This document shows, piece after piece, positions 1-27,350 of a stretch of 34,947 nucleotides of DNA; position 1 is the first letter of the stretch, and each line of letters begins with the position of its first letter. Under the pieces are notes generated by a model that was given only the letters and a program-made list of their open reading frames with translations, ran no database searches and was not told where the DNA came from. The DNA comes from a virus: the UHGV virus genome UHGV-0162383; one strand, given 5' to 3'. The position numbers and the translations under genes are program-made.

Positions 1-9
1 TTAGCAAGG

Positions 10-29
10 TTGTGTACATTTGTACACAA
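10..29. promoter_or_regulatory. Perfect inverted repeat TTGTGTACA-tt-TGTACACAA just upstream of the TetR-family gene; candidate autoregulatory operator
   Basis: 9-bp arms are exact reverse complements, placed about 20 bp upstream of the likely ATG at 50; TetR-family repressors typically bind palindromes overlapping their own promoter. Confidence 0.4.
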
Positions 30-49
30 TTGCAGAGAGAGGAAATGAC

Positions 50-586: not shown

Positions 587-635
587 TAGATAAGTTTTAG
601 ATAACAAAAAACCCATTTATGTAAACGGGTTAATG

Positions 636-667
636 AAAACAATAAGTTAGAGTAAAAACAATAAGTT
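636..667. repeat. Tandem direct repeat AAAACAATAAGTT (x2, 6-bp spacer) next to the 3' end of int; candidate integrase arm-type sites / attL region
   Basis: Exact 13-bp repeat at 636-648 and 655-667, inside the 104-bp gap between the TetR stop and the int stop. Confidence 0.3.
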
Positions 668-690
668 GGGTTGGTGGTCAGTGGTGGTTA

Positions 691-1743
691 TTACGGGGTA
701 ATGCCAACCGCTGCCGCCACTTTGTCGCCACTTGGCAGCGTTGCCAGAGGATTGAAACGGAGCGCCGTTTCCAGATGATCCGGTGCCAGATGTGCGTAAC
801 GCATAGTCATTTTTATATCGTGGTGTCCGAGAATTTTTTGTAAGGCCAGAATGTTTCCACCCGACATCATGAAGTGCGCCGCAAACGTATGGCGCAGAAC
901 GTGTGTGAGTTGACCGCGAGGGAGCACGATAGACGTTTTTTCCATCACGGATAAAAATTGAAAATAGCAGTCTGTGAAGAAATTGAACCCATCAAGCGCC
1001 ATGATCTCTTCGTAAAGCTCTTTACTGATAGGGATGCTTCTGTTTTTCTTCCCCTTCGTTCTTACAAAGGTAATTCGGTATTTGGTCACCTGTGAACGAG
1101 TAAGATTTACGGCTTCTCGCCAGCGTGCGCCTGTGCTTAAGCATATCTTAACTACCAGTGCCAGAATTGGGTCCTGACGTTTGCAATCAGCCAGTAATTC
1201 AACAATCTGCTCATGGGTAAGCCATGCCATCTCTTTTTCTGCGATGGTGAATTTTCGCATGTTCTCCAGTGGGTTCGGATACGACCATTCGCCCAGGCGG
1301 GATAGTTCGCTAAAAACACTACTTAGATAGCTTTGCTCCAGGTTAATGGTGACCGGGCTTGCTCCTTTCTTCCATTTCTCGCTGAAGTAGATCTCACCTG
1401 TCAGGCGTTTATCTCGATAGTGGGCAAACATTTTAGAGGTTAGATCAGTTGCAAGGGGATTGCCCAGAGCGTCAACCATCAGCAGCAATTTGTCATAGAC
1501 ATGCTGCCCAGCTGTCAGTGATTTACCATGTAGTTTGAACCATAGCTCAACCACGTCTTTCAGTGTTCGACGATCCACTGATTCACCTAGCCAGGGCTTT
1601 GCTTCGGTTTCTTCCATCGTGTGACGCTCAAAAGCCAGTGCTTCGCCTTTGGTGGCGAATTGTTTACGCACACGACGTCCACTACGTCCGGCGGGGTAAC
1701 ATTCGCAAAGCCATTTTCCTGTGGTGAGTTTTCGTACTGCCAT
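691..1743 (-). CDS. int: Phage integrase, tyrosine recombinase (P2/186 Int family)
   Basis: 350 aa; C-terminal catalytic signature HVLRHTFAAHFMMSGGNILALQKILGHHDIKMTMRYAH (R..H..R..Y); N-terminus MAVRKLTTGKW...RKQFATKGEALAFE typical of P2/186 integrases; sits at the prophage end. Confidence 0.9.
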   Translation of the reverse strand: MAVRKLTTGKWLCECYPAGRSGRRVRKQFATKGEALAFERHTMEETEAKPWLGESVDRRTLKDVVELWFKLHGKSLTAGQHVYDKLLLMVDALGNPLATDLTSKMFAHYRDKRLTGEIYFSEKWKKGASPVTINLEQSYLSSVFSELSRLGEWSYPNPLENMRKFTIAEKEMAWLTHEQIVELLADCKRQDPILALVVKICLSTGARWREAVNLTRSQVTKYRITFVRTKGKKNRSIPISKELYEEIMALDGFNFFTDCYFQFLSVMEKTSIVLPRGQLTHVLRHTFAAHFMMSGGNILALQKILGHHDIKMTMRYAHLAPDHLETALRFNPLATLPSGDKVAAAVGITP

Positions 1744-1826
1744 AAAAAAGCCCTCATATCAGAGGGCTAAATTTAACTGTATATACAACCAGTAATCAAT
1801 GTGTGATTGCTATGAAACATACATTG

Positions 1827-3503
1827 CTAAGCAACATGTAGTTCATCGTTGGCGGAAGTGGCTGCTTTGCGTTCCTGCTCAATAGCTAGTGACTCTCTAT
1901 ATTCTTTCGCCTCTGCAAACATTGTCCAGTGGGCATTGATGTTCATATCTTCAATAACCGATTTAATTTCTTTAATATTTACGTTAAAAAACTCTTTTCG
2001 TGAGTTAATTTTATTGACCTGCTTTTCGTTGAAGACTTTATGCAGATGATTTTCTAATGACGGTGCATCATCACTATAAATCATCGCATGAACATCGAAC
2101 GAAAAAGGAACACTAGCATCCCCAAGTTCACGAACACGATCAAGTGGTTCAAGGCGGCGTGTCATTCCAATTTTATATACATCTTCGCCAAATGAGCCAA
2201 TATTGCTAATTATATAAACATGGCCTGATCTAGTTTGTTGAGCCATAGAAATAGCTCGTTGGTTTTTAGCTTCAGCTTCTTCATATTTTAACTGTAGTTC
2301 AGCTATTTTTTGCTCTAAAGCTAAGCGTTGTTCTTCATTTGCAAGCATAAGCTCTTTCGTTGCTTTATTTATAGCTTGCTGAATAGCTTTTTCTTCTTTT
2401 TCGGCTTCTTTTATCGCTTTTTCATACTCTCTACGAGCTCTTTCCTCTTCACGAAGCTGTTCTTTAATCCTTCTTTGCTCCTCTTTTTCTTCGAGCATAA
2501 TTTCATTAACTGCAACTCCCCATTTTAGCTCGTTGAGTCGTGCCTGAAGATAGATGTCACTTATTTTTGCGGATCTAAAAGCAGAGCCATTATAATTTAC
2601 AAGTTGAAATGCATCTTTTATTTCTTGGGAAAGTTTTCCAAAATTGTTGTGTTTGACTTTTGATAAAATACTGTCAACTCTTCCATTGAAGGCATCCAAA
2701 ACAAAGTTGATAGCAGTATTACGCCTGTTTTGCTCAACATAATCACACGAAGCTGCTTTATTAGTTTTTATTAATGATTTTGTTAACTCCCTGGCTTTTT
2801 GTAATTCCTTGCCTGCATCTGTAAACTCATAATTTTCTGCCAATTCATCAAGTACACTACGGTTAGGGATGATCCATTCATCGCCATAACCTTCAATTTT
2901 ATTTTTCATTGATTTGGCAACTGCTTCATATTTTTCTGCAAACTCTTTAGCTTCATATGCTGAACCAGCAATCTCTTTTGCTCTTTCTTCTGCATCGGAA
3001 ATAATTTTTACTGCGTTGTCATTAGCATTTGAGATCAGCTCATTTGCTTTACTGTTGGCATTATCAAGACGTTCTTTGGCTTTCAGGCGTGCATCGCGAG
3101 CGTCTTTGGTGATTGCTATAGCTTCGCTATTAGCGTTGCTTATTGTTATCTGAGCTTGATAACTTGCTTCGTTTACTGTCTTAGCTGCCTTTATTTGGGC
3201 TTCTTCTATTTTTTGCCTAGCTATTGAGTCTGCATTTTTTATCTTATTCTCTGCCTCCATCACTGCGCTGTGCAATTCTTCGTATTGCCATAATGGTGCT
3301 GCTCGCCCTTCAAGCTCTGATAGATCTCGTGCAGTCTGTGCTAACTTTTCTTGATTTTCACTCAGTTGGCTGGAAAGGGCTATGTTGTTAGCCGTCAGGT
3401 TATCTATGGCGGCTTTGTGTTCTTTACTTTGCTTAAATAATATTATAGCTAGAACAGGGGCGAGAAATGCTAATAAGAATATAACGATGGAAAATGAATT
3501 CAT
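1827..3503 (-). CDS. Membrane-anchored coiled-coil protein with DUF4041-like middle region and C-terminal T5orf172 (GIY-YIG-like) domain; cargo (moron) gene
   Basis: 558 aa; N-terminal hydrophobic helix (IVIFLLAFLAPVLAIILF), long A/E/K-rich heptad-like stretches, C-terminal GHVYIISN...VYKIGMT.R...R..E motif resembling GIY-YIG/T5orf172; strongly AT-rich compared with flanking int and cI. Confidence 0.6.
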   Translation of the reverse strand: MNSFSIVIFLLAFLAPVLAIILFKQSKEHKAAIDNLTANNIALSSQLSENQEKLAQTARDLSELEGRAAPLWQYEELHSAVMEAENKIKNADSIARQKIEEAQIKAAKTVNEASYQAQITISNANSEAIAITKDARDARLKAKERLDNANSKANELISNANDNAVKIISDAEERAKEIAGSAYEAKEFAEKYEAVAKSMKNKIEGYGDEWIIPNRSVLDELAENYEFTDAGKELQKARELTKSLIKTNKAASCDYVEQNRRNTAINFVLDAFNGRVDSILSKVKHNNFGKLSQEIKDAFQLVNYNGSAFRSAKISDIYLQARLNELKWGVAVNEIMLEEKEEQRRIKEQLREEERARREYEKAIKEAEKEEKAIQQAINKATKELMLANEEQRLALEQKIAELQLKYEEAEAKNQRAISMAQQTRSGHVYIISNIGSFGEDVYKIGMTRRLEPLDRVRELGDASVPFSFDVHAMIYSDDAPSLENHLHKVFNEKQVNKINSRKEFFNVNIKEIKSVIEDMNINAHWTMFAEAKEYRESLAIEQERKAATSANDELHVA

Positions 3504-3523
3504 TTTTAAATCCTTTTACTATA

Positions 3524-4120
3524 TCAATTTGAAACTATTGTACTTCTTATACAAGCAACCACTTCAATATCAGAAAATGCACATTCAAAGCTATTCTCTG
3601 TAGTTGTAATTTTAATCATACCTTTTGGAAGCTTTGTGATTTTTCGAATGGAATAGGTTCCGTCGATGTTGATTAACCAGTGTCCATCAAGTACTTCAGA
3701 AAATTTTTGATCACAAATGTATGTGACAAGCCCATCCTGAATAACAATTGGTGATGAAAGATTTGCAGGAAGAAATGATGAATCGAATACATATGAACCA
3801 TCTTCAATCATTTTGCCTGCGGTAAGGCGAAACTTGGGAAGCTCTTCTGTGGCTACTGTCAGCGAGCTTTGCTTAAGTCCTTGCCCGGTGGTTAACCATT
3901 TCAGTGAGGTTCCTGTTTCAAGAGCACATTGGATTATCCAGTCTGCAGGAAACGTATCCCGCAAATACCTGTTCGCCAGAGTGCTTTTTGATACTTCCAA
4001 GTGATCAGCTAAAGCCTGTCGTGTCGTAAAGCCATAAGCTTCGACTAATCGCTCAATCGCAGCCTTACCACCTTTATTGGGATTTATTTTGATCTCACTT
4101 GGGTACTTTGATGTTGACAT
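3524..4120 (-). CDS. cI: Phage immunity repressor, 186 CI-like (HTH N-terminal domain)
   Basis: 198 aa; N-terminal HTH-like segment (YGFTTRQALADHLEVSKSTLANRYLRD); position immediately after int and divergent from apl/cII-like genes, as in 186. Confidence 0.75.
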   Translation of the reverse strand: MSTSKYPSEIKINPNKGGKAAIERLVEAYGFTTRQALADHLEVSKSTLANRYLRDTFPADWIIQCALETGTSLKWLTTGQGLKQSSLTVATEELPKFRLTAGKMIEDGSYVFDSSFLPANLSSPIVIQDGLVTYICDQKFSEVLDGHWLINIDGTYSIRKITKLPKGMIKITTTENSFECAFSDIEVVACIRSTIVSN

Positions 4121-4215
4121 ATCTCTTTTGCGATCCTAGTATCAGTTTTGTCCCCATTTGGGTACTTGTCACGATTACTACAGGCTCACCACAAGCCAAT
4201 AGGAGATGTTGCATC
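4121..4215. promoter_or_regulatory. Lysis-lysogeny switch region between divergent repressor and apl/cII-like genes (expected to hold the lytic/lysogenic promoters and operators)
   Basis: Intergenic region between the divergent cI-like (-) and apl-like (+) starts; individual -35/-10 elements could not be assigned confidently. Confidence 0.4.
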
Positions 4216-4437
4216 ATGACCCCTAACATTTCAATAACTCTGAATACGCCACATGTCACAATTGAGCGTTATAGCGAACTTACTGGTCTTTCAATCGACA
4301 CAATTAACGATATGCTGGCTGACGGTCGCATCCCTCGGCATCGCCTTCGGAAAGACAAGAAAAGAGAAAAGGTGATGATCAACCTTGCTGCTCTTACCGT
4401 TGATGCACTTACTGATTGCAATGTTGTATTCAACTAG
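4216..4437 (+). CDS. apl: Apl/Cox-like small DNA-binding excisionase/repressor
   Basis: 73 aa from ATG 4216 with AGGAG 10 nt upstream; first gene of the rightward early operon, directly upstream of the cII-like gene; small basic protein. Confidence 0.5.
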
Positions 4438-4469
4438 TTCCATTTTGGGATACATCAGGGGTGTCGACC

Positions 4470-4979
4470 ATGTTTGATTACCAAGTTTCCAAACATCCAC
4501 ATTTTGATGAAGCCTGTCGTGCATTCGCATTGCGCCACAACCTGGTGCAACTGGCAGAACGTGCTGGCATGAATGTGCAGATTCTGCGGAACAAGCTGAA
4601 CCCATCTCAACCTCATTTATTAACCGCACCAGAAATCTGGCTGCTTACCGATCTGACTGAAGATTCAACGCTGGTAGATGGTTTTCTGGCACAGATTCAC
4701 TGCCTGCCATGTGTACCGATTAATGAGGTTGCAAAAGAGAAACTGCCGCATTACGTCATGAGCGCAACTGCAGAGATCGGACGTGTTGCAGCAGGTGCGG
4801 TATCTGGTGATGTAAAAACTAGTGCCGGTCGTCGTGATGCTATCAGCAGCATTAACTCTGTAACACGACTGATGGCGCTGGCTGCTGTTTCATTGCAGGC
4901 CCGTTTACAGGCTAATCCTGCGATGGCGAGTGCAGTTGATACCGTGACTGGCCTCGGTGCTTCATTCGGTTTGCTGTGA
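4470..4979 (+). CDS. cII: 186 CII-like transcriptional activator
   Basis: 169 aa from ATG 4470 ([45 protein letters not shown]...); size and position match 186 CII. Confidence 0.7.
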
Positions 4980-4986
4980 GGTGCTT

Positions 4987-5187
4987 ATGCTGACGAAAGA
5001 ACCATCATTTGCATCGCTGCTGGTAAAACAAAGCCCGGCAATGCACTACGGTCACGGCTGGATCATGGGTGAGGATGGTAAACGCTGGCATCCGTGCCGT
5101 TCACAAGATGAATTGCTGGCAGAACTATCTACGAAAAAACGGGGGAACAAATGGCTATTGAAGGCGCTGCGGCGACTGTTCCATTAA
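4987..5187 (+). CDS. Small early-operon protein of unknown function (possibly Fil-like)
   Basis: 66 aa ORF with GAGGTG RBS before ATG 4987; position corresponds to the fil/dhr region of 186 but identity not established. Confidence 0.4.
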   Translation: MLTKEPSFASLLVKQSPAMHYGHGWIMGEDGKRWHPCRSQDELLAELSTKKRGNKWLLKALRRLFH

Positions 5188-5492
5188 GCCCCGGTGAACG
5201 CCTGAATGGACTTAATCACATAGCGGAATTAAGGGCGAAAGTTTTTGGCCTGAATATTGAGTCAGAGCTTGAGCGGTTTATTAAAGATATGCGTGATCCA
5301 CGGGATATCAATAACGAACAAAATAAACGAGCACTGGCAGCCATATTCTTTATGGCAAAAATTCCGGCTGAACGTCATAGCATCAGCATCAATGAGCTGA
5401 CCACTGACGAAAAGCGGGAGTTGATTAAAGCAATGAATCATTTTCGTGCAGTGGTGAGCTTATTTCCCAGACGGCTAACCATGCCGAATTAA
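5151..5492 (+). CDS. Hypothetical early protein
   Basis: 113 aa ORF with GGGGGA RBS; phage-like GC content; overlaps the upstream gene by 37 nt in a different frame. Confidence 0.45.
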   Translation: MAIEGAAATVPLSPGERLNGLNHIAELRAKVFGLNIESELERFIKDMRDPRDINNEQNKRALAAIFFMAKIPAERHSISINELTTDEKRELIKAMNHFRAVVSLFPRRLTMPN

Positions 5493-5559
5493 CCAACTAA
5501 TGAAATTAATGGCGTAAACCCGCCGAGCATCCCTTTATCTAAATTCAGGAGAATTGATT

Positions 5560-5793
5560 ATGCGTAATATTGAAATCCTCACGACTAAAACCGGACCGGA
5601 TGATGCAGGGCTTAATATTTTACTGACAGAGGTTCGTCTGGAAGAACGCCGGGCAAGGGCTGAAGCAATGGCAGCTCGCCTTGATAGCCTGGCGTGTCAT
5701 ATCTCATCCCGTCAGCTAAACCACGTGGAAGCGGCAGAACTGCTGCGTGTGACTGCTGAAGCAATCCAGAACGAAGCGCAGGAGATCCACTAA
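5560..5793 (+). CDS. Hypothetical early protein
   Basis: 77 aa from ATG 5560 with AGGAG 8 nt upstream; stop overlaps the next start (TAATG). Confidence 0.45.
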   Translation: MRNIEILTTKTGPDDAGLNILLTEVRLEERRARAEAMAARLDSLACHISSRQLNHVEAAELLRVTAEAIQNEAQEIH

Positions 5794-6020
5794 TGGCTGA
5801 TGCAATGGATCTCGTACAGCAGCGCGTTGAAGAAGAACGCCAGCGCCATATCCGTGCTGCCCGTGCCAAAACACCGGGCGTGTCTCGCGTGCTTTGCATT
5901 GAGTGTGAAGCGCCAATTCCGCCAGCACGCCGCCGTGCCATTCCGGGTGTGCAGCTTTGCATTACCTGCCAGGAAATTGCAGAGCTGAAAGGCAAACATT
6001 ACAACGGAGGTGCTGTATGA
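5793..6020 (+). CDS. TraR/DksA-family C4 zinc-finger protein
   Basis: 75 aa with CxxC...CxxC (CIECEAPIPPARRRAIPGVQLCITCQ), the TraR/DksA zinc-finger pattern common in P2-like early operons. Confidence 0.7.
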   Translation: MADAMDLVQQRVEEERQRHIRAARAKTPGVSRVLCIECEAPIPPARRRAIPGVQLCITCQEIAELKGKHYNGGAV

Positions 6021-6874
6021 GCACCATCCTGAAATGGGCGGGAAATAAAACCGCCATTATGTCCGAACTGAAAAAACACCTTCCTGCAGGCCCGCGACTG
6101 GTTGAACCTTTCGCGGGTTCCTGTGCTGTGATGATGGAGACGGATTATCCCTGCTATCTGGTTGCGGATATTAATCCTGATTTAATCAACCTCTATAAAA
6201 AGGTTGCCGCTGATTGTGAGGTGTTTATATCTCGTGCCAGAGCTTTATTTGAGGACGCAAACAGGGAGGTGACTTATTACAACATAAGACAGGAGTTTAA
6301 TTACTCAACTGAAATTACTGATTTCATGAAAGCGGTATATTTCCTGTATCTCAATCGTCACGGTTACCGTGGGTTATGTCGTTATAACAAGAGCGGGCAT
6401 TTCAACATTCCATACGGTAATTATAAAAATCCGTATTTCCCTGAAAAAGAAATTCGCGCATTTGCAGAGAAAGCCCAGCGAGCAACGTTTATCTGCGCCA
6501 GCTTTGATGAAACGCTGGCGATGCTGCAGGTGGGGGATGTGGTGTATTGCGATCCGCCTTATGACGGTACGTTTTCCGGCTATCACACTGACGGCTTCAC
6601 TGAAGATGACCAGTATCACCTGGCATCCGTTCTTGAACATCGGTCATCAGAAGGATATCCGGTCATTGTTTCTAACAGTGACACATCCCTGATCCGTTCG
6701 TTGTATCGCAATTTCACCCACCACTACATCAAAGCAAAACGCAGCATCGGTGTGGCAGCTGGTGAGAGTAAATCTGCAACAGAAATCATCGCTGTTTCCG
6801 GGCCGCGCTGCTGGGTAGGATTTGATCCTTCGCGTGGCGTGGATTGTTCCGTCGTGTACGGAGTGCGTGCATGA
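6017..6874 (+). CDS. dam: DNA adenine methyltransferase (Dam-like, N6-adenine MTase)
   Basis: N-terminal ILKWAGNK...PFAGSCAV (AdoMet-binding) and DPPY catalytic motif ([15 protein letters not shown]); ATG 6017 with GGAGG RBS, ATGA overlap with the upstream stop. Confidence 0.85.
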
Positions 6875-9285
6875 GCCATGCTGATATGAACAACTGCAGC
6901 GGCTTTAATGAGGTCGCCGCAGCATTCTCATGGAACAGCCCGAAAAAGGCCATTAACCCTTATCTGGACCCGGCGGAAGTTGCGCCGGTTTCTGCGCTTT
7001 CAAACCTGATCACTCTGTACGCTGCCGATAACGAGCAGGAACAACTGCGCCGCGAGGCACTGAGTGATCAGGTCTGGGAGCGTTATTTCTTTAATGAATC
7101 CCGTGATCCTGTCCAGCGCGAAATGGAGCAGGATAAGCTCATTAGCCGGGCAAAGCTGGCGCATGAGCAGCAGCGTTTTAATCCGGATATGGTCATTCTG
7201 GCGGACGTCAACGCCCAGCCTTCCCATATCAGCAAGCCGCTGATGCAACGTATTGAATACTTTAGCAGCCTGGGCAGGCCAAAGGCTTATTCCCGCTATT
7301 TACGTGAGACGATTAAGCCATGTCTGGAACGACTGGAGCATGTACGCGACAGCCAGCTATCTGCATCTTTTCGCTTTATGGCAAGCCATGAAGGGCTGGA
7401 CGGCCTGCTGATCCTGCCTGAAATGAGTCAGGATCAGGTGAAGCGCCTGTCTACCCTTGTCGCCGCGCATATGAGCATGTGCCTTGATGCAGCTTGTGGT
7501 GATTTGTATGCCACCGATGACGTTAAGCCAGAAGAAATCCGCAAGACATGGGAAAAGGTGGCAGCGGAAACCCTGCGTCTGGATGTCATCCCGCCTGCGT
7601 TTGAGCAACTCCGCCGGAAAAGAAACCGCCGTAAACCCGTGCCCTATGAACTCATTCCGGGTTCGCTGGCGCGTATGTTGTGCGCCGACTGGTGGTACCG
7701 GAAATTATGGAAGATGCGTTGCGAATGGCGGGAAGAGCAGTTGCGTGCTGTCTGCCTGGTCAGCAAAAAAGCATCTCCCTATGTCAGCTATGAAGCCGTG
7801 ATGCATAAACGTGAGCAGCGCCGTAAGTCGCTGGAGTTTTTTCGTTCTCATGAACTGGTGAACGAAGACGGCGACACGCTGGACATGGAGGATGTGGTAA
7901 ACGCCAGCAGCAGCAACCCTGCGCATCGCCGCAATGAGATGATGGCCTGTGTTAAAGGCCTGGAGCTTATCGCGGAAATGCGTGGTGACTGCGCCGTTTT
8001 CTACACCATTACCTGTCCGTCACGTTTCCATTCCACGCTCAATAACGGCAGACCAAACCCAACCTGGACAAATGCGACGGTAAGACAAAGCAGCGATTAT
8101 CTGGTCGGCATGTTTGCTGCATTTCGTAAGGCGATGCACAAAGCCGGGTTGCGCTGGTATGGCGTGCGGGTGGCTGAGCCGCATCATGACGGTACGGTTC
8201 ACTGGCACCTGTTGTGTTTCATGCGCAAAAAAGACCGCCGTGCCATTACTGCATTGTTGCGTAAGTTTGCCATCCGTGAAGACCGCGAGGAACTGGGTAA
8301 TAACACTGGTCCACGCTTTAAATCTGAGCTGATAAACCCGCGCAAAGGAACACCGACAAGCTACATCGCGAAATACATTAGTAAGAACATTGACGGGCGT
8401 GGTCTGGCTGGCGAGATCAGCAAGGAAACGGGTAAATCCCTGCGTGATAACGCTGAATACGTTAATGCCTGGGCGTCTCTGCATCGTGTTCAGCAATTCC
8501 GCTTCTTTGGTATTCCGGGGCGTCAGGCTTACCGTGAACTGCGATTGCTGGCTGGTCAGGCGGCAAGGCAACAGGGCGACAAAAAAGCAGGTGCGCCGGT
8601 ACTGGATAACCCGCGCCTTGATGCCATCCTGGCTGCTGCTGATGCTGGTTGTTTTGCCACTTACATCATGAAGCAGGGTGGTGTACTGGTTCCCCGCAAA
8701 TATCACCTCATCAGAACTGCTTATGAAATTAACGAAGAGCCGACCGCCTATGGCGATCACGGCATTCGTATTTATGGCATCTGGTCACCCATTGCAGAGG
8801 GCAAGATCTGCACTCATGCAGTGAAGTGGAAAATGGTTCGTAAAGCCGTTGACGTTCAGGAGGCGGTAGCCGACCAGGGCGCTTGCGCCCCTTGGACTCG
8901 TGGCAATAACTGTCCCCTTGCTGAAAATTTGTACCAACAAGGGAAAGACAAATCAGCTGATGGAGATACCAGAACGGATATCACCCGCATGGATGACAAG
9001 GAGTTGCACGATTACCTGCACAGTATGAGCAAAAAAGAGCGCCGGGAACTGGCTGCAAGGTTACGCCTGGTGAAACCGAAACGGCGTAAAGACTACAAAC
9101 AGCGAATTACAGACCATCAGCGACAGCAGCTCGTCTATGAACTGGAGTCCAGAGGATTTAATGGCAGCGAGAAAGAGGTCGATTTACTCCTTCGCGGCGG
9201 CAGTATTCCGTCAGGAGCAGGTCTGCGTATCTTCTATCGGAACCAGCGTTTGCAGGAAGATGATAAGTGGCGAAACCTGTATTAA
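6871..9285 (+). CDS. A: Replication initiation protein A (rolling-circle HUH endonuclease, P2 gpA family)
   Basis: About 804 aa; HUH motif ([13 protein letters not shown]) and downstream Tyr-containing segment ([10 protein letters not shown]); ATG 6871 overlaps the dam stop (ATGA); the six-frame ORF begins upstream at TTG 6844. Confidence 0.9.
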
Positions 9286-9379
9286 TTACGCGGGTTAACA
9301 ATTCGTGCTCTTAATAATACCAGGCATATCAGGCTGATGAACGTAAAAAAACGTTTTACATCAGTAAGATTATTATATA

Positions 9380-9395
9380 CTGTAAATATAAACAG
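9380..9395. promoter_or_regulatory. LexA (SOS) box CTGT-N8-ACAG: taCTGTaaatataaACAGtg
   Basis: Canonical CTGT-N8-ACAG with AT-rich spacer, about 45 bp upstream of the Tum-like/DinI-like gene pair. Confidence 0.65.
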
Positions 9396-9438
9396 TGGTT
9401 ATGTATACAGTATTGCTTGTGGTGTCATAGGAGGAAAG

Positions 9439-9627
9439 ATGCAGGACTATTTTTTGGAGTCTTTGAAGCTCCAGCGCATTGATTTTTTTCTTAAGCTTGT
9501 AGCGGCTAGTGAGTGTAGTGATGAAGAGAAGGGGCTGGCTTTGCAGTGGGTTTCTGAACTGACAGATGAACTCATGGCAAAAATCAGAAGCCACGAATAC
9601 AACCGCTCAATGGATGTCATCAGCTGA
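9439..9627 (+). CDS. Small protein downstream of the LexA box; candidate Tum-like SOS-inducible antirepressor
   Basis: 62 aa from ATG 9439 with AGGAGG RBS; position and LexA control match the 186 tum locus; no sequence-level confirmation. Confidence 0.4.
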   Translation: MQDYFLESLKLQRIDFFLKLVAASECSDEEKGLALQWVSELTDELMAKIRSHEYNRSMDVIS

Positions 9628-9637
9628 GGGGACTTTT

Positions 9638-9871
9638 ATGCGCATTGAAATAATGATCGATAAAGAGCAGAAGATTAGCCAGTCTACCCTGGACGCCCTT
9701 GAATCCGAGCTTTACCGCAATCTGCGCCCCCTGTATCCCAAAACGGTAATTCGTATCCGTAAAGGTAGCTCTAACGGTGTGGAACTGACCGGACTGCAAC
9801 TGGACGAAGAAAGGAAGCAAGTGATGAAAATTATGCAGAAGGTGTGGGAAGACGACAGCTGGCTGCATTAA
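9638..9871 (+). CDS. DinI-family protein
   Basis: 77 aa, MRIEIMIDKEQKISQSTLDALESELYRNL...VWEDDSWLH, resembling E. coli DinI in length and in N- and C-terminal motifs; immediately follows the Tum-like ORF under the same LexA box. Confidence 0.7.
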   Translation: MRIEIMIDKEQKISQSTLDALESELYRNLRPLYPKTVIRIRKGSSNGVELTGLQLDEERKQVMKIMQKVWEDDSWLH

Positions 9872-10141
9872 GAAACGTTGCTGGCGTCTGAACTTGCTTC
9901 TGGCGTCAGCAAGGTTGAACAACGAGCTGTGCGAGGCGTTAGTGTCAATTTGTTACCTTAACCACGATATATGCTAGGAAATTAACAGTTCTTAAGAAAC
10001 CGCTTGCATGATCGAGCGCATTGAACTTAAGTTTAAGTAACGAAATCAACAGATGATATTGTTGTCTAAATTTTAAAGATAATCTGTTGAGGTTGTAGGC
10101 GTCGGAGTGTAGACTTCCGCGCCATGTAAAAAGGGGGAGTT

Positions 10142-10357
10142 ATGTCAAGCATCGCCGCATTTAGCCTGGGTAACCCAGTTGAACGTCTGGCAAGGGTTCT
10201 TAAAGAGAACCAGGACAAACTCAATCTTAGTAAAGATGGTTTTGTGTCCGTAGACTTGTCTAACAAAAGAGCAATGGATGCCATCAAGGCACAGATGGAT
10301 AAGCTTGAAGGCATCAAAACGAGCACTGTAAAAGAGAAAACTAATAGAACCAGATAA
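10142..10357 (+). CDS. Small soluble charged protein; first gene of a two-gene cargo operon
   Basis: 71 aa; strong RBS AGGGGGAG before ATG 10142; stop overlaps the downstream start (TAATG); AT-rich. Confidence 0.45.
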   Translation: MSSIAAFSLGNPVERLARVLKENQDKLNLSKDGFVSVDLSNKRAMDAIKAQMDKLEGIKTSTVKEKTNRTR

Positions 10358-11199
10358 TGGCAACATTACTTTTAGCAGTGATTTTGGTTAGTGGTTTTAT
10401 TTATGTAAACCTATCACTTTCAACAAGATACCGATATAAGCGTTCCAACGGCTGGGACGCTTATTTTTTTGTGGCTGCCTGGGGTATTGTTTTTTTTCTC
10501 CTTGGCGGTTTTTTCACCTTTATTTTGAACGTCAGCGGAGGGTTTCGTTGGCTGGCTAATGCCTTGAATCTAACACCTGACAGTTTTAATGGCATGTTGT
10601 CTTCATCGAAAGACAAACTTCAAAGAATAAATGAAATCAAACAGATAGCATGGGTTATGATTTCAATTGTCCTCGCTGCGATTTCAGGTTTTGGAAATAA
10701 GTTACGCACATCACGTGGAGATCGTCGCTGGGATGCCTTAGCTAAAGCTGTGGGTAATAACGCTTTCGAATCATTACTCATGGAAGCGTCCGCAAGACAG
10801 TTTCCGATCATAGCAACTCTGTCGTCTCGCAAAATCTATGTTGGTCTTGTTACTTGTCCGGCGTTAGAAAACGGGCTTTCAGAGCACCTTGAACTTCTCC
10901 CGATGTTAAGCGGATATCGGGATAAAGATGATCTAACGATTAGTATCACGACTAACTATCACCAACATTATCTTGATAGTGGTGTGATAAGTGGAATGTC
11001 TCGGCTTAATATCGAAGATTTCCGTGTGCTCATACCAAAAGATGAGGTTGAAACAATTTCGTTTTTTGATACTGAGACATATAACAAATTTAAAGAAAAT
11101 GAAGCCAGGGATAGAAAGAGCTGTCGAAAGATTGGTAGTAAAAGTGCATCTTCGCGCAGCAAGCGTGCAGCAGATGCTGAGTCAAATGATCGTGCATGA
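10357..11199 (+). CDS. Integral membrane protein (about 3 TM helices) with cytoplasmic C-terminal domain; second gene of the cargo operon
   Basis: 280 aa; hydrophobic segments near residues 3-17, 35-57 and 97-112, then a soluble domain of roughly 130 aa and a basic Ser/Arg/Lys-rich tail; translationally coupled to the upstream ORF; followed by an intrinsic terminator. Confidence 0.5.
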   Translation: MATLLLAVILVSGFIYVNLSLSTRYRYKRSNGWDAYFFVAAWGIVFFLLGGFFTFILNVSGGFRWLANALNLTPDSFNGMLSSSKDKLQRINEIKQIAWVMISIVLAAISGFGNKLRTSRGDRRWDALAKAVGNNAFESLLMEASARQFPIIATLSSRKIYVGLVTCPALENGLSEHLELLPMLSGYRDKDDLTISITTNYHQHYLDSGVISGMSRLNIEDFRVLIPKDEVETISFFDTETYNKFKENEARDRKSCRKIGSKSASSRSKRAADAESNDRA

Positions 11200-11247
11200 C
11201 TATGCTGCATGAGATCGCATGATCGTTTGAGGATCGTTTTTGCTAAG

Positions 11248-11272
11248 GCCCGCCAGAACTGGCGGGCTTTTG
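11248..11272 (+). terminator. Rho-independent terminator (GCCCGCCAG..CTGGCGGGC + TTTTG)
   Basis: Perfect 9-nt inverted repeat with short loop followed by a T-run, about 50 bp after the stop of the membrane-protein gene. Confidence 0.7.
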
Positions 11273-11316
11273 CGTAGATCATGCACCTGCATGAAAACTA
11301 CTACATAAAGCGGGCA

Positions 11317-11335
11317 GGCGTGGCGGGGATACGAG
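11317..11335. other. Candidate cos (cohesive-end) site, GGCGTGGCGGGGA...
   Basis: GGCGTGGCGGGGA matches my recollection of the first 13 nt of the 19-nt cohesive ends of P2/186 (GGCG[A/T]GGCGGGGAAAGCA..); located between the A-side cargo and the portal-side cargo, where cos lies in this family. Confidence 0.4.
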
Positions 11336-11455
11336 CGCGCGCTAGAAACGTTTACTGATATTCTTGTAGTACATTGCATTTTTCTTTTTTTATGTCATAT
11401 CATTAGCCATTTGAATAGGACATTATTATCAATTTGTTGTCTCTGAGGATAAGTT

Positions 11456-13237
11456 ATGAATTTTGATGCAACACCACTAAATATAAAAAACATTCTATCT
11501 GTAAAACAAAGATATGTTATTCCACGTAATCAACGTGAGTTTAGTTGGGAAAAGCTTCAGCTTGAAGAATTATGGCAAGATATTGTCAGAAACATAAGGT
11601 TGAATGAAGATGGACAGAACTTGGAGTGTTCAGAATATTTTATAGGGACTATTGTTCTTTCTGGAGCAGATAGTGATGATGTATTAGAAGTGGTTGATGG
11701 ACAACAACGATTTTCAGTTATTACTATATTGCTTTCATTAATATCGCGTAAATTGCGTTCCTTAGGGCAAGATTCATTAGCGGATGATATATTTAAAACA
11801 TATATCGTTACTGTGAGTCCTACATTTAGCAGAAGCCAATTAGCTTCAAATGGTGAGACATTTATTGAAAAATTAGCAAAAAATAGCGATAGAACATATT
11901 TTAAGTTAAAATATCAAGATCGCGAAGAGCATCAAGTTGATGAATCTTGTGAAGAAGATGTACGTATAAGTTATGCAGGAATTTTTCTTTCTAGAAAACT
12001 AGGGAGGAAATCACTCTGTTCTGCATTGTTGCGAGATGGTGCAAAACATTATAATAACCAAGATTATATATTTTGTTTGACTGCTGTATATAGAATGATT
12101 ACCAATTATTTGAAGTTGGTAAAAATATCTGTAGGTAAGGAGGATGATGCTTATGATATTTTTGAAGTGTTGAATGCTCGAGGGATAAACTTAAGTTCAA
12201 TTGATTTGATAAAGAATAAAGTATTCCAAACTTGCACTCAAACATATCCGGTAGATATTGCAAAAACAAAATGGGATTATATCGTTACTCAAATTGAGTC
12301 TAGGGATAGTAATAGCACTATTGCTGATTATATTAGAACGTGGTGGCTTTCTAAGTATAATTATATTGGAGAAGATCAACTTTATCGTGCTTTTAAACGT
12401 GAGATTCAAGATGAGAATACTTTATTGTCATCAGCATCATTTCTGAACGAATTATATGATGATGTTGAATTATACTGTAAAATAATAGCGCCAAATACAG
12501 ATGACTGGCCTCAACCTGATCAGCGTGAAATTTACAACTCGTTAAAAGCATTCGAGATTTTTAATGTGAGTATTCCTCGACCATTTGTACTCTCATTACT
12601 TAGAAAACGTAAAGAGAAACCGAGAGCCCTTACACAATCAATGCTGATAGAATGTTTGAAGTCCTTAGAGTCATTTCACTTTAAGTTTAATGCAGTATGT
12701 CGTCTAAGACCATCTGGAATCGATGCAAAATATTCTGTATTAGCAGTAAGAATGAATAAGGCATTAAATAAAAGAGATGTTGAGGGTGTTATTAATGACG
12801 CATTAGATTATTTTACACAGAAAGGGCCTTCAGAAAATATATTCAAACAAGCATTTTCAAAGAATATTGTTTATACAAATAAAAAGTCTGGGCAAAGGAA
12901 GTTGATTGTTTATATTTTTGACAAATTGGAACGTATCAGACGAGGGACGCGAGAGTTAAAAATGGATATAGTTTCTTTGGAACACATATCATCTCAAAGC
13001 AAAACTAACGAGTCAGTCGTGGGTATGATTGGTAATTTACTACCACTCTGTTTTTCACTTAATGAAGATTGCAAAAATTATGAGTTGCACAAAAAAATAG
13101 AATCTTATAAAAAATCTGATTTAAAATTAGTTACAGAGTTTGTTAGTGAGTCAGAAGCAAGAGAACATAAATGGGATGATTCATTAATAAAAGAAAGAAC
13201 AGATAGCTTGGCGTTAGAAACGTTTGCTAAAATATAA
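11456..13237 (+). CDS. DUF262/DUF1524 two-domain protein, GmrSD-like (type IV restriction-like) nuclease; cargo gene
   Basis: 593 aa; N-terminal DUF262/ParB-like motifs (IPRNQREFSWE and VVDGQQRFSV), C-terminal His-Me-finger-like motifs (SLEHISSQS ... GNLLPLCFSLNEDCKN); strongly AT-rich; RBS GAGGA before ATG 11456. Confidence 0.6.
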   Translation: MNFDATPLNIKNILSVKQRYVIPRNQREFSWEKLQLEELWQDIVRNIRLNEDGQNLECSEYFIGTIVLSGADSDDVLEVVDGQQRFSVITILLSLISRKLRSLGQDSLADDIFKTYIVTVSPTFSRSQLASNGETFIEKLAKNSDRTYFKLKYQDREEHQVDESCEEDVRISYAGIFLSRKLGRKSLCSALLRDGAKHYNNQDYIFCLTAVYRMITNYLKLVKISVGKEDDAYDIFEVLNARGINLSSIDLIKNKVFQTCTQTYPVDIAKTKWDYIVTQIESRDSNSTIADYIRTWWLSKYNYIGEDQLYRAFKREIQDENTLLSSASFLNELYDDVELYCKIIAPNTDDWPQPDQREIYNSLKAFEIFNVSIPRPFVLSLLRKRKEKPRALTQSMLIECLKSLESFHFKFNAVCRLRPSGIDAKYSVLAVRMNKALNKRDVEGVINDALDYFTQKGPSENIFKQAFSKNIVYTNKKSGQRKLIVYIFDKLERIRRGTRELKMDIVSLEHISSQSKTNESVVGMIGNLLPLCFSLNEDCKNYELHKKIESYKKSDLKLVTEFVSESEAREHKWDDSLIKERTDSLALETFAKI

Positions 13238-13243
13238 GTTCAG

Positions 13244-13264
13244 TGGCAGGTATAGTACCTGCCA
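13244..13264. terminator. Bidirectional hairpin TGGCAGGTA-tag-TACCTGCCA between convergent genes
   Basis: Perfect 9-bp inverted repeat with 3-nt loop in the 36-bp gap between the stops of the GmrSD-like gene (+) and the portal gene (-), followed by a T-rich tract. Confidence 0.55.
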
Positions 13265-13273
13265 TTATTCAAT

Positions 13274-14311
13274 TTACATACACTCCACAGAGTATTCACT
13301 GAATGAGATGATGTTTTTTTTAGCCCATTCATTAAGTTGCAGAATATGTTTTTGAATTGGTAGTAACTCATTCATAACAAATACTTTCGCGGCCTTCTCC
13401 ACATCCCCAAAACCCCCAACATTATTAGGCATTATCCCCATCATTTGCGGCGGCACGCGGTGCGCAGCCATCATGTCATCACGGCTCACGTTTTTGATAT
13501 TCAGAAACTCATCCTTCGCTGCGACTTCTGACAACGGGATAATCTGAAGACCGTCTTTTTTACCATTAGGCGAGTACATAAACAGATTGCGGAAGTTACC
13601 TGGTCCTTTGGCGCTTTTCATCGCATTGCGAAGGTTGTTCACGTCCTCCTGGTTCTGCGCGGCATCGGTCATGTACATGATGAAGCCTGCATGACTGCCG
13701 TTAATGTAATACTTGCGGCGGAACAGCGTGGCGGACTCGTTGAGCAGGGCTGACGGAATGGCAGAAAGATAGCCGGGCAGACCATAGATCTCCTGATTTA
13801 TGTCCGGTTCCATCAGATGGAAAATGCTGCCTTTCGTGAACTGATACGGCTGCGTGGTCATGCCGTATTGCACAAACCAGTAGGTATCCAGGTCTAACCC
13901 GCGTCGGGTGTATTTTGCCAGCGCAGGTTCAAGGGCGATAACTTCACCGAAGCGGTTCGTGCGTTTCTCCAGATAGGCGTTACCAAATACCAGATAGTCC
14001 TGTACAAAACGCGAAAAAGCCTGTTGGCTGAGCAGCGGATGAGGGATATAGGTACTGGTCAGAATGTTGCACTTTACTGCAATCGGGGAACTGTGATGCA
14101 CGGCAGCGCGGAAGGTGCGCGCCAGTCCGTCAAAGCTGACGGGCGGCTCATACCAACGGTCCATCTGTACGCATTCCACATAGTCCAGTAATTCTCGGCG
14201 GTCCAGAACTGGAACGGGATCGCCGAAGCTGAATGCTTCGGCTGTAGTCTGGTTTTTATGCTGGATCTGATTCGTCGCCGCAGTGCGGTTTTTCTTACTC
14301 TTTCCCATCAA
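13274..14311 (-). CDS. Q: Portal (capsid vertex) protein, P2 gpQ family
   Basis: 345 aa; sequence (FSFGDPVPVLDRRELLDYVE...WYEPPVSFDGLAR...GNAYLE..) matches my recollection of P2 Q; adjacent to and co-oriented with the terminase. Confidence 0.9.
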   Translation of the reverse strand: MMGKSKKNRTAATNQIQHKNQTTAEAFSFGDPVPVLDRRELLDYVECVQMDRWYEPPVSFDGLARTFRAAVHHSSPIAVKCNILTSTYIPHPLLSQQAFSRFVQDYLVFGNAYLEKRTNRFGEVIALEPALAKYTRRGLDLDTYWFVQYGMTTQPYQFTKGSIFHLMEPDINQEIYGLPGYLSAIPSALLNESATLFRRKYYINGSHAGFIMYMTDAAQNQEDVNNLRNAMKSAKGPGNFRNLFMYSPNGKKDGLQIIPLSEVAAKDEFLNIKNVSRDDMMAAHRVPPQMMGIMPNNVGGFGDVEKAAKVFVMNELLPIQKHILQLNEWAKKNIISFSEYSVECM

Positions 14312-16074
14312 AAAATCTCCACAATATTGCTGGTATTGGCGGACTCGCCCTGCAGCGGTTCGTTAAACAGTGCGTGCATCGTTGCCCAGGCCAGATCGGC
14401 GTGGCTGGCTTCTTCGCTGCGGCTGGCTTCATAGGTCGGGCGGTTGCCGCTGGCGGTGGTGGCGCGACGGATTGCCATGAATGACTGCGCAATGTCGGTG
14501 TGCCCGGCGTCAAACTCCAGACGGCGGTGGCTGATAATGTCGTAGGCCTTGAGTACCAGGGCGTTTTTAACGTTGGGGTTGTAGACAAACTCCCGGACGG
14601 CTGGAAAAAACGCTTTCACGTTCTCGTAAACCCCGTGGCCGACACCTGTCGAGTCGATGCCGATGTAGGTCACGTTGTACTGTTCAGTCAGTTTTTTGAT
14701 GGCGTCAGCCTGGGCGCGGAAGTCCATCCCGCGCCACTGGTGACGCTCAAGAATGCGGAACTTACCGCCCGGCACGGCTGGCGGTGCCACCACCACGCAT
14801 CCGGCGCTGTCGCCGTTCTGCGTACCTTTTGCCGGGTCATAACCGATCCACACCTCGCGCCAGCCAAACGGGCGCAGGGCCAGTGCATGAAAGTCGGTCC
14901 AGACTTCCCAACTGTCCACCATGCACGCCTGCAGTTCGCTGAGCGGGAACACGGACGCGAGATCGTCCACAAACTCGCACATCAGCAGGTTCTGGTATTC
15001 GTCCGGGCTGTACTCCATGCGCAACTGGTCAAGGTCGAACAGGTTACAGCCGCCGCGCACCGCATCTTCCACGGTGACTATCTGGCGGTATTGCCCGTCT
15101 GCGCACAGCAGGCCGGGGGCCAGATTGCTGTGGGACAGGTCGATGTCCACCTTATCGGCTTTGTTGCGCCCACGGTTGAACAGCGCACCGGACCAGAACG
15201 GATAAGCACTGTGGGTCAGGCTGGATGGCGTGGAAAAATAGGTTTGTCGCCATTTTTTATGAATAGCCATACCGGAAGCCACTTTGCGCAGCTCCTGGAA
15301 TTTCGGTATCCAGAAATATTCATCCAGATACAGGTTGCCGTGGTAACTCTGGGCCGTGCGGGCATTGGTGCCGAGGAAGTAAAGCGTGGCCCCGTTAGGA
15401 AGCACCATCGGATCGCCTTTCAGCTCCACCTCGACTTCTTTGGCGAAGTCGATGATGTACTGCTTAAAGACGTGAGCCTGTGCCTTACTGGCAGAAAGGA
15501 AAATCTGGTTACGTCCGGTAAGCAGGGCGTCAATCAGGGCTTCACGGGCAAAGTAAAAGGTCGCGCCGATCTGGCGTGACTTCAGCAGGTTGCGGATGCG
15601 GTTGGTTTTTCCGGCTTCCCACCAGTGGCGCTGGTAGTTGAACATGGAGGAATGGAAAATTTCTTCCAGCTTCTCAATCTGTTCATCGGTGAAAACGTTC
15701 TTTTCCGGCTGACGGCGTGGGCCTTTGTTGCGGTTGGCGACGTTAGGGTTTAAGTCGGCTTCGTTGCCGCCATTGTTAAACTTGCCGATCCGCGCGTGGC
15801 GTTCCGACTGGCGCGCCAGCAGGTCAATCTCTTTGAAATCTTTCCCTTCTTTGTGCTCCTTCATAATGAGCTGGCAGTAGCGTGCGGCGGTGGTGAGCTG
15901 CATCTGATCCAGCGGCCCATAGTCACCCCACTTGTCGCGTTTTTTCCAGCTGTGAACGGTTGCAACTTTCTCGCCCAGCATTTCAGCAATGCGGGCTACG
16001 CGGTATCCCTGAAAGTACAGCAGCATGGCCTGCCGACGGGGATCGAGATCTGCGGGTGTCAGTGTGGTGTTCAT
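14308..16074 (-). CDS. P: Terminase large (ATPase) subunit, P2 gpP family
   Basis: 588 aa; N-terminus MNTTLTPADLDPRRQAMLLYFQGYRVARIAEMLGEKVATVHSWKKRDKW characteristic of P2 P; stop overlaps the Q start. Confidence 0.9.
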   Translation of the reverse strand: MNTTLTPADLDPRRQAMLLYFQGYRVARIAEMLGEKVATVHSWKKRDKWGDYGPLDQMQLTTAARYCQLIMKEHKEGKDFKEIDLLARQSERHARIGKFNNGGNEADLNPNVANRNKGPRRQPEKNVFTDEQIEKLEEIFHSSMFNYQRHWWEAGKTNRIRNLLKSRQIGATFYFAREALIDALLTGRNQIFLSASKAQAHVFKQYIIDFAKEVEVELKGDPMVLPNGATLYFLGTNARTAQSYHGNLYLDEYFWIPKFQELRKVASGMAIHKKWRQTYFSTPSSLTHSAYPFWSGALFNRGRNKADKVDIDLSHSNLAPGLLCADGQYRQIVTVEDAVRGGCNLFDLDQLRMEYSPDEYQNLLMCEFVDDLASVFPLSELQACMVDSWEVWTDFHALALRPFGWREVWIGYDPAKGTQNGDSAGCVVVAPPAVPGGKFRILERHQWRGMDFRAQADAIKKLTEQYNVTYIGIDSTGVGHGVYENVKAFFPAVREFVYNPNVKNALVLKAYDIISHRRLEFDAGHTDIAQSFMAIRRATTASGNRPTYEASRSEEASHADLAWATMHALFNEPLQGESANTSNIVEIF

Positions 16075-27282: not shown

Positions 27283-27350
27283 ACGTTTATGAAAATGCAG
27301 AGATAACGGCTAACTGGCATCATCTCCGGTTTTTATTCAGGGGAATGATC

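Follow-up and report, generated by a model that had tools for sequence, protein, structure and literature searches.

Three AT-rich stretches of an Escherichia coli 186/P2-like prophage as probable occupants of recombination-prone cargo slots

How far can base composition tell which parts of a temperate phage genome are exchangeable cargo? The question is raised by UHGV-0162383, a virus genome of 34,947 nucleotides (the whole stretch is called the window here), in which a first-pass annotation, made by eye from the letters, had pointed to three adenine- and thymine-rich (AT-rich) stretches, at about 1827-3503, 9900-11200 and 11340-13270 (islands 1, 2 and 3), as independently acquired modules. 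Judged from its open reading frame (ORF) listing, domain scans and nucleotide searches, the window is an E. coli 186/P2-like (Peduoviridae) prophage with 186-type regulation, integrated beside rcdA. The analysis described here makes it very probable that each of the three AT-rich stretches currently fills one of three cargo slots of this backbone that are prone to recombination, with a homologue of the nuclease SNIPE/PD-lambda-1 in the first slot, a two-gene cassette, orf71/orf280, in the second and a GmrSD-type nuclease in the third. In general terms, AT-rich cargo in P2-like hotspots near cos and near the integrase is already published, and the finding is in this respect an accurate rediscovery. 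The variable blocks, as defined by homology breakpoints, and the genes that they contain are as follows.

1807-4112, no strand assigned: slot 1 variable block, guanine-plus-cytosine (GC) content 0.379, containing SNIPE and the co-travelling cI allele
1827-3503, minus strand: SNIPE/PD-lambda-1 homologue of 558 amino acids (aa), called from PADLOC and Pfam
3524-4120, minus strand: CI repressor (Pfam Phage_CI_repr and Phage_CI_C)
9943-11190, no strand assigned: slot 2 cargo block, GC 0.405, flanked by the DinI-like gene and the cos block; right end of the packaged DNA
10142-10357, plus strand: orf71 (71 aa), phrog_9843
10357-11199, plus strand: orf280 (280 aa), phrog_3630
11344-13290, no strand assigned: slot 3 cargo block, GC 0.321, flanked by cos and the portal gene; left end of the packaged DNA, extending into the 3' end of Q
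11456-13237, plus strand: GmrSD-type nuclease gene, 593 aa (Pfam GmrSD_N and GmrSD_C)

Sliding-window analysis and exact counts gave GC contents of 0.376, 0.413 and 0.322 for islands 1, 2 and 3 respectively, against 0.535 for the prophage outside the islands, 0.503 for the early region (4121-9285) and 0.548 for the late region (13271-34947). Compared with background windows of the same length, the z-scores were -5.2, -3.8 and -7.1, and none of the approximately 950-1000 background windows was as low in GC as any island (binomial p from 1e-18 to 2e-79); with the breakpoint-defined blocks listed above they became -5.5, -4.0 and -7.1. Codon use followed the same trend, since the GC content at third codon positions (GC3) was 0.283 in the island 1 gene, 0.444 and 0.342 in the island 2 genes and 0.224 in the island 3 gene, compared with 0.57-0.71 in late genes, and the codon adaptation values, calculated with the late genes of the same prophage as reference, were 0.49, 0.54/0.47 and 0.40 respectively, compared with 0.62-0.80 in backbone genes. 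Both the AT-richness and the AT-biased codon choice noticed by eye were therefore borne out, the quantitative profile deviating strongly from the background and the two codon measures falling in parallel with GC.

The limits of the stretches, on the other hand, had to be redrawn. Island 1 does not end at 3503, the AT-rich block running on through cI to approximately 4112, in agreement with the homology breakpoints, and island 2 begins at about 9943 rather than 9900, as established from a relative with an empty site. Moreover, the rest of the prophage, which had been described as roughly balanced, has the overall GC of 0.535 given above but is not uniform, with milder dips at 9001-9750 (leader of the SOS operon, 0.42-0.44), 6001-6750 (dam, 0.44-0.45) and 25500-26500 (tail-fibre tip and assembly region, 0.42-0.45). 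Neither is AT-richness needed as a mark of non-canonical genes: DUF5347 (5151-5492), the Dam-type N6-adenine methylase (6017-6874) and the invertase module have no homologue in P2 or 186, and they lie near the backbone GC, Dam and DUF5347 being only mildly low (0.471 and 0.447, respectively).

The evidence that carries the cargo reading comes from comparison with relatives. Pairwise BLAST of positions 1-14400 against seven close relatives gave edges which were sharp and recurrent. In slot 1, homology to relatives without SNIPE ends at 1806/1826 and restarts at 3879-4113, the unit replaced being the 558-aa gene together with most or all of cI. The edges of slot 2 lie at 9869/9881/9942 on the left and at 11191/11192 on the right, and phage vB_EcoM-813R9 carries 7 bp at this position, that is, an empty site. 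In slot 3, relatives diverge 7 bp after the cohesive end (11343), and homology restarts within the 3' end of the portal gene (13291-13364), so that the portal C-terminus is swapped along with the cargo; the last 6-30 codons of this gene (13274-13364) are part of the variable block. The content of the slots between genes A and Q (gpA-gpQ) varies among similar phages, and the seven close relatives showed seven combinations:

DETEC-P881: slot 1 without SNIPE; slot 2 the same as in the window; slot 3 SieB
2014C-3061: slot 1 SNIPE (100%); slot 2 a different gene; slot 3 retron Ec67
J3: slot 1 SNIPE; slot 2 a different gene; slot 3 the same GmrSD
IMT16316: slot 1 SNIPE; slot 2 a different gene; slot 3 the same GmrSD
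KP12: slot 1 SNIPE; slot 2 different genes; slot 3 different genes
813R9: slot 1 SNIPE; slot 2 empty; slot 3 a Hypoth_Ymh protein
4LV2017: slot 1 other cargo; slot 2 different genes; slot 3 retron St85

According to these alignments the window is a three-way mosaic. From int to cII (int, SNIPE, cI, apl, cII) it matches 2014C-3061 at 99.7-100% identity, from dinI through island 2 to cos it matches DETEC-P881 at 99.9-100%, and its GmrSD gene matches those of J3 and IMT16316 at 99.7%. KP12 shares the first of these matches in part, with 99.7-100% for int, SNIPE and cI and only 94.4% for apl-cII. The dam and A genes are only 94-97% identical to any relative, and in the prophages carrying the 99.7%-identical GmrSD gene, A/dam are 95-97% and the portal gene 94.7% identical. 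On this comparison, cargo identity is decoupled from backbone identity.

At the level of the species, 1,368 of 5,426 complete E. coli genomes carry the backbone, with island 1 present in 165 of them, island 2 in 52 and island 3 in 50, and none of the 50 GmrSD copies falls below 99% identity. No E. coli genome covers more than 91% of the region, and consequently none holds all three islands. Furthermore, tblastn (E <= 0.01) found no homologue of any of the four cargo proteins in P2 or 186. The claim that each stretch coincides with genes absent from the canonical P2/186 gene order thus stands, and the synteny comparison showed these genes to be rare among the relatives. Independent acquisition of the three modules is also supported, since island 2 occurs without the other two in DETEC-P881, islands 1 and 3 occur without island 2 in J3 and IMT16316, and island 1 occurs alone in 2014C-3061 and KP12. 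Among the caveats is that acquisition is better put as cassette replacement in pre-existing hotspots, a process already on record (PMC9122126, PMC13586616, PMC9519451).

The slots were then surveyed across the lineage with one genome per species, using the portal gene as anchor for the cos-to-Q interval and cII for the int-to-cI interval. The cos-to-Q slot was counted as filled when longer than 400 bp, and only prophages with an identifiable cos were included (n=52). It was filled in 44 of the 52 (median length 1.8 kb), with a mean GC of 0.377 versus 0.56 for the core and with all 44 lower than the core by more than 0.05, while the empty slots were GC-rich (0.55-0.64). The A-to-cos interval exceeded 1 kb in 33/52, 32 of these 33 being AT-poorer than the core. 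Both sides were filled in 26 prophages, only slot 3 in 18, only slot 2 in seven and neither in one. As regards slot 1, of 68 species-level prophages of the 186 type, 38 had at most 50 bp between int and cI, like 186 itself, and the other 30 had a gap of 385-2968 bp which was AT-rich. The alternative occupants found in the seven close relatives (retron Ec67, retron St85, SieB, Hypoth_Ymh and hypothetical proteins) are all AT-rich as well (GC 0.32-0.41), as are old, tin, fun(Z) and orf30 of P2 (0.33-0.35; old 0.348, tin 0.329).

The first slot holds a protein which, by profile and motif, is a SNIPE/PD-lambda-1 protein, a membrane-anchored GIY-YIG nuclease. It matches the PADLOC model PD-Lambda-1 (PDLC03976) at 7.3e-120, residues 107-550 aligning with positions 37-481 of the 491 in the profile. 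Pfam DUF4041 (PF13250) was found at residues 267-322 (3e-12, above the gathering score), and T5orf172 (6e-17) and MUG113 (2e-19) at residues 427-520, the C-terminal GIY-YIG nuclease domain, whose motifs are intact: VYI (429), YKIG (443), TRR (448) and E484, the last probably the counterpart of the published E414. A Kyte-Doolittle hydrophobic segment at residues 1-27 (peak 2.99) is the predicted N-terminal transmembrane (TM) helix, and a coiled coil follows it. RefSeq names near-identical proteins 'SNIPE associated domain-containing protein'. Thus, the protein shares with SNIPE/PD-lambda-1 (Vassallo 2022; Nature 2026, PMC13190303) the N-terminal TM helix, the central DUF4041 and the C-terminal GIY-YIG domain; with respect to the PADLOC PD-Lambda-1 profile, the 558-aa protein differs in having an N-terminal coiled-coil region approximately 70 aa longer. 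According to PMC13190303, SNIPE has been demonstrated experimentally to be an inner-membrane nuclease which cleaves phage DNA during injection, and one TM helix is present in 59% of its homologues. SNIPE homologues with 53-55% aa identity over 72-87% of the protein were also observed in Synechococcus phages and in Marinitoga (Thermotogota) viruses (H154-H157), a very wide host range for proteins so alike.

The neighbour of SNIPE in the block, CI, is a 186-type immunity repressor (33% aa identity to 186 CI), and the two genes travel together. SNIPE and the window-type CI occurred together in all six species-level prophages in which either was found (loci L099, L107, L118, L120, L122 and L124; Escherichia, Citrobacter, Silvania, Raoultella, Klebsiella and one further enterobacterium), neither type being present without the other in the survey, and they have diverged in parallel, with 84-98% aa identity for CI (full length) and 80-98% for SNIPE. 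The two alleles co-vary among the close relatives too. Such co-divergence across genera means that island 1 is not a recent solitary insertion; it is half of an immunity-plus-defence module, with cI as the other half, which is swapped as a unit. Since the pair was found together in six out of six cases across genera, SNIPE may be coupled functionally, beyond physically, to one CI immunity type. A term search of PMC13190303 found neither the cI-int location nor the cI-allele linkage of SNIPE. On the other side of the block, a terminator-like hairpin with a T run was noticed between the SNIPE stop and the int start (1749-1768, minus strand); the int ATG lies within the T-run tail, and the element belongs to the conserved backbone (<=1806). 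In 186, cI and int overlap, and an element like this hairpin is missing.

In the second slot, the cargo follows a backbone SOS operon, whose features are:

9378-9397, plus strand: LexA box TACTGTAAATATAAACAGTG (CTGT-N8-ACAG), read from the sequence, upstream of the orf62/DinI-like operon
9439-9627, plus strand: orf62, phrog_698 match; backbone SOS operon, left flank of slot 2
9638-9871, plus strand: DinI-like gene (Pfam DinI); backbone SOS operon, left flank of slot 2

The position of the LexA box corresponds to the p95 SOS promoter of 186, where p95 and a LexA site are annotated upstream of tum. The DinI-like protein has 41% identity to the C-terminal half of 186 Tum, and the orf62/DinI-like region is kept in all relatives (97-100%). 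The possibility that orf62 is the N-terminal half of Tum was rejected, there being no similarity between them; only the DinI-like ORF aligns, and it does so with the C-terminal half.

As for the cargo itself, orf71 encodes a small soluble basic protein (phrog_9843, 1e-36) and orf280 matches phrog_3630 (4e-99), both families being of unknown function, and neither protein matched PADLOC-DB v2, Pfam or NCBIfam. The 57 homologues of orf280 that were found are all without a functional name. Three TM-like segments and a cytoplasmic Sm/LSm-like domain are predicted for orf280. In fact, the AF2 model (pLDDT 77) contains a C-terminal five-stranded barrel with a weak Foldseek match to Sm/LSm proteins (E ~4e-3, TMt up to 0.75; PDB and BFVD); a profile search of PDB sequences found nothing, and a comparison with Pfam at E <= 1 gave only noise from the TM segments. 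If the Sm-like domain forms rings, its attachment to a membrane anchor would point to an oligomeric pore or gate.

The pair is not confined to this prophage. In each of the six contexts examined, the orf280 homologue has a gene of 55-72 aa in front of it. Two of the contexts are P2-like prophages (E. coli and Photorhabdus) and a third lies beside such a prophage in Shewanella; the others are tail regions, lambdoid in Enterobacter and of a siphophage in Aeromonas, and a tRNA-adjacent islet in Pectobacterium. From this distribution, orf71/orf280 appears to be a mobile cassette which moves among P2-like, lambdoid and other prophages and tRNA-adjacent chromosomal islets. In two of the contexts a LexA-box/dinI unit lies directly upstream of the cassette, and orf71 has 42% identity to the Pectobacterium small gene; no convincing common leader or regulatory RNA element was found upstream of orf71 across the six contexts. 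The Pectobacterium islet (L010, 5128-6819) consists of a perfect LexA box, TACTGTTTATTTATACAGTA, dinI, a 65-aa gene and the orf280 homologue, and adjoins an apparent tRNA gene, outside any recognisable prophage. Its arrangement suggests that the trio of dinI, small gene and TM gene can stand alone as an SOS-regulated unit.

The nearest known system in position is orf97 of 186, the last gene of the SOS operon p95-tum-orf97, which as a cloned gene blocks 186 infection. Like island 2, it follows a Tum/DinI-like gene under the control of a LexA box and is closely followed by the terminator and cos. Nevertheless, it has no sequence similarity to island 2, which, unlike orf97, is a two-gene cassette with a membrane protein; orf280 was accordingly rejected as an Orf97 homologue (best BLASTP E 0.24; tblastn against 186 without a match). 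Island 2 could tentatively be regarded as a lysogen- or SOS-expressed superinfection exclusion or abortive-infection module acting at the membrane.

Slots 2 and 3 are separated by a short conserved block, made up as follows:

11191-11343, no strand assigned: conserved cos block of 153 bp, present in every relative
11248-11267, no strand assigned: terminator-like hairpin, then a T run
11317-11335, no strand assigned: 19-nt cohesive-end sequence GGCGTGGCGGGGATACGAG, from alignment with the 186 and P2 end junctions
11336-11342, no strand assigned: CGCGCGC, directly after the cohesive end

A literal search of the window for the P2/186 cos 19-mer, with up to three mismatches, gave no match; since the 186 and P2 end junctions align to the conserved block, this block carries a (diverged) cos site. 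Its presence between islands 2 and 3 means that these are adjacent in the prophage and lie at opposite ends of the packaged DNA. When island 2 served as query, around 1,259 E. coli genomes gave a match, which in the hits sampled covered only 11192-11340. P2 and 186 have cargo on the A side of cos alone (tin and old in P2, orf97 in 186), their cos-to-portal interval being empty, with 170-180 bp.

The cargo of slot 3, as its domains suggest, is a type IV, modification-dependent restriction nuclease. The protein contains Pfam GmrSD_N (DUF262) at residues 10-257 (2e-32), with DGQQR at 81, and GmrSD_C (DUF1524) at residues 458-586 (1e-11), with His-Me finger-like motifs (LEH at 508, GNL at 526 and an N-containing motif at 535-541). 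The best PADLOC model was HEC-06 (7e-75), followed by the Orf5, SspE and mREase_IV models. It therefore shares with GmrSD-family type IV enzymes (BrxU, the SspE N-terminal domain, HEC-06) a DUF262 domain with DGQQR, a His-Me finger-like DUF1524 domain and the single-gene format, while its sequence similarity to any solved structure is only distant, the nearest being 9jfl (a DUF262 protein, 9e-12) and SspE, the latter for its N-terminal domain only. No close homologue was found in 50,697 phage records. A terminator-like hairpin (13242-13266, no strand assigned), found by the terminator scan, lies within the cargo block, between the convergent GmrSD and portal genes. In addition, a 23-nt direct repeat (19/23 identical, with the exact 11-mer TAGAAACGTTT) brackets the GmrSD cassette at 11339-11361 and 13211-13233, one copy beginning at the left breakpoint of slot 3 and the other forming the last codons of the GmrSD gene. 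The window contains just three copies of the 8-mer GAAACGTT, the third at 9872-9879, 1 nt past the dinI stop, at the left breakpoint of slot 2. The direct repeat may be the footprint of microhomology-mediated recombination, or may be due to chance; as none of the slot 3 cargos of 44 other species has one, such repeats were rejected as a general mark of insertion into this slot.

The proposed scheme links these elements. SNIPE, sitting within the lysogenic cI-to-int gene string, would be expressed from the lysogenic transcript and, as known for its family, would cleave incoming phage DNA at injection; orf71/orf280 would receive an SOS input and act as a membrane-level exclusion or abortive-infection module; and the GmrSD-type enzyme, again by analogy with its family, would restrict modified DNA. 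The cassettes would be replaced by homologous recombination in the conserved flanks, namely int and the pR/cII region for slot 1, dinI and the cos block for slot 2, and the cos block and Q for slot 3, and recombination in these flanks would yield mosaics such as the window. Several points weigh against this scheme. The core gene cI is as AT-rich as the cargo, with a GC of 0.397, and therefore composition alone cannot separate cargo from backbone; island 2 matches no known defence model, its fold match being the weak one mentioned above; the SNIPE-cI association of island 1, to judge by its divergence, is old rather than a recent independent insertion; and for slots 1 and 3 there may have been loss from P2 and 186 instead of gain here.

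The first of these points leads to the reading that AT-richness is a property of lysogeny-expressed or regulatory phage genes, through H-NS binding, low expression or promoter density, and does not denote foreign origin, a reading which we hold to be possible but rather doubtful. The repressor gene is AT-rich in DETEC-P881 also (0.382), if less so in 186 (0.449), and every slot occupant is AT-rich whatever its family or host genus, a uniform bias which is hard to derive from many donors. Nevertheless, presence/absence polymorphism, the empty site, the alternative occupants and the decoupled identities show horizontal exchange irrespective of composition, and the gene-property explanation is compatible with the cargo reading, as it concerns why the genes are AT-rich and not whether they are cargo. 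The last point, taken further, would make the islands ancestral to the phage lineage and lost from P2 and 186, with no acquisition here. The co-divergence of SNIPE and the cI allele to approximately 80-86% aa identity across five named genera, from Escherichia to Klebsiella, indeed speaks for a long vertical association within one immunity type. However, islands 2 and 3 are found in fewer than 4% of the backbone-bearing E. coli genomes, near-identical cargo copies (99.7-99.9%) occur in backbones differing by 3-10%, cargo and backbone identities are incongruent for both these islands, tail regions of lambdoid and other siphophages and a tRNA-adjacent islet harbour the island 2 cassette as well, and SNIPE homologues reach Synechococcus and Marinitoga viruses, all of which makes ancestry followed by loss improbable.

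It could also be thought that islands 2 and 3 represent one acquired block, as they are only about 150 bp apart and fall in a single gpA-gpQ hotspot as this is defined in PMC9122126 and PMC13586616. This was rejected and is considered extremely unlikely: the universally conserved cos block lies between them, and they occur apart in relatives, DETEC-P881 having island 2 with SieB, and J3 and IMT16316 having island 3 with other slot 2 genes. Moreover, the two islands differ in GC (0.405 versus 0.321) and in their best-matching relatives, and the 52 species surveyed show independent filling of the two sides. The reading of three separately exchanged slots is thus maintained.

The remaining features of the prophage frame are the following:

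20-586, plus strand: host gene rcdA (TetR-family regulator; Pfam TetR_N and TetR_C), marking the chromosomal side of the left end of the prophage
691-1743, minus strand: integrase (Pfam Int_N and Phage_integrase), kept in all relatives; left flank of slot 1
After cI and before the replication gene A, in this order: apl-like, cII, fil, DUF5347, DUF2732, TraR and Dam
6871-9285: replication protein A, from the gene listing
13274-14311, minus strand: portal Q (homologue of P2 gpQ and 186 W), annotated in relatives as phage portal protein; right flank of slot 3
After Q, minus strand: terminase P, then the late genes

The rcdA gene has 98-99.6% nucleotide identity to E. coli relatives, in which it is annotated under this name, and the relatives in complete E. 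coli genomes are integrated at the same rcdA site. The backbone is distant from the type phages, with 31-36% aa identity to P2/186 A for the replication protein and 60-62% to P2 Q and 186 W for the portal. Rfam and tRNA scans of the whole window gave no matches. Further along, an invertible tail-fibre host-range module was observed at the P2 Z/fun position (25553-27917), with 28-nt inverted repeats at 25553-25580 and 27268-27295, a Hin/Cin-type serine invertase at 27345-27917, an alternative fibre C-terminal segment on the minus strand at 26589-27323 (Gly_rich_2) and two opposed tail-fibre-assembly ORFs; its region (25500-26500) is a fourth, milder compositional patch, absent from the list of the first-pass annotation. 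In DETEC-P881 (L005, 21685-23441), an HNH endonuclease and an AAA ATPase were found between the tail-completion and baseplate genes, the P2 orf30 position being a further cargo slot which is filled in that prophage and empty in the window.

These results have to be placed against what is known of such hotspots. Rousset 2022 (PMC9122126) and Vassallo 2022 (PMC9519451) have described the gpA-gpQ hotspot next to cos in P2-like phages, together with the defence systems that it contains, and both cite the Odegrip work (2006). Table S5A of the former already holds the island 2 and 3 proteins (WP_000094764, WP_024220380, WP_022645420 and WP_001008289), within arrangements such as 'hypothetical + DinI + hypothetical + hypothetical + SieB' and 'hypothetical + DUF262/DUF1524 + hypothetical + DinI'. 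Fast defence swapping in 1,511 P2-like prophages is reported by Moura de Sousa 2026 (PMC13586616), where a minor integrase-to-primase hotspot accounts for 8% of P2 defence systems, and Rousset 2022 also describes a cI-int defence hotspot in Vibrio K139-like P2-related phages. With the P2 tin-old ('TO') region the window shares the location between A (6871-9285) and Q (13274-14311), beside cos, and the AT-rich non-essential cargo, for which hundreds of alternative arrangements are known; it differs in that its lineage has two slots split by cos, with the larger system (GmrSD) on the Q side. With the Vibrio K139-like cI-int and the P2-like integrase-to-primase hotspots it shares defence cargo between repressor and integrase, the published accounts dealing with Vibrio phages or giving a percentage only for P2-like elements. 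Term searches in passages of the hotspot papers found neither a cos split into two independently filled slots, nor a one-to-one association of SNIPE with a cI type, nor functional information on orf71/orf280.

For the annotation of prophages, the practical meaning is that the accessory anti-phage load could be recognised here from composition alone, a useful heuristic. As regards the architecture of the family, the gpA-gpQ hotspot is divided by cos into two slots, of which the one towards the portal gene is the more often filled in this lineage, and the inheritance of SNIPE as a unit with a particular cI immunity allele is of specialist interest. The orf71/orf280 cassette is the best lead for new biology, being a cheap and well-defined candidate for testing. 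Finally, as far as the bacterium is concerned, the lysogen probably carries two known nucleases directed against incoming phage DNA, SNIPE and the GmrSD-type enzyme, together with one uncharacterised membrane cassette.

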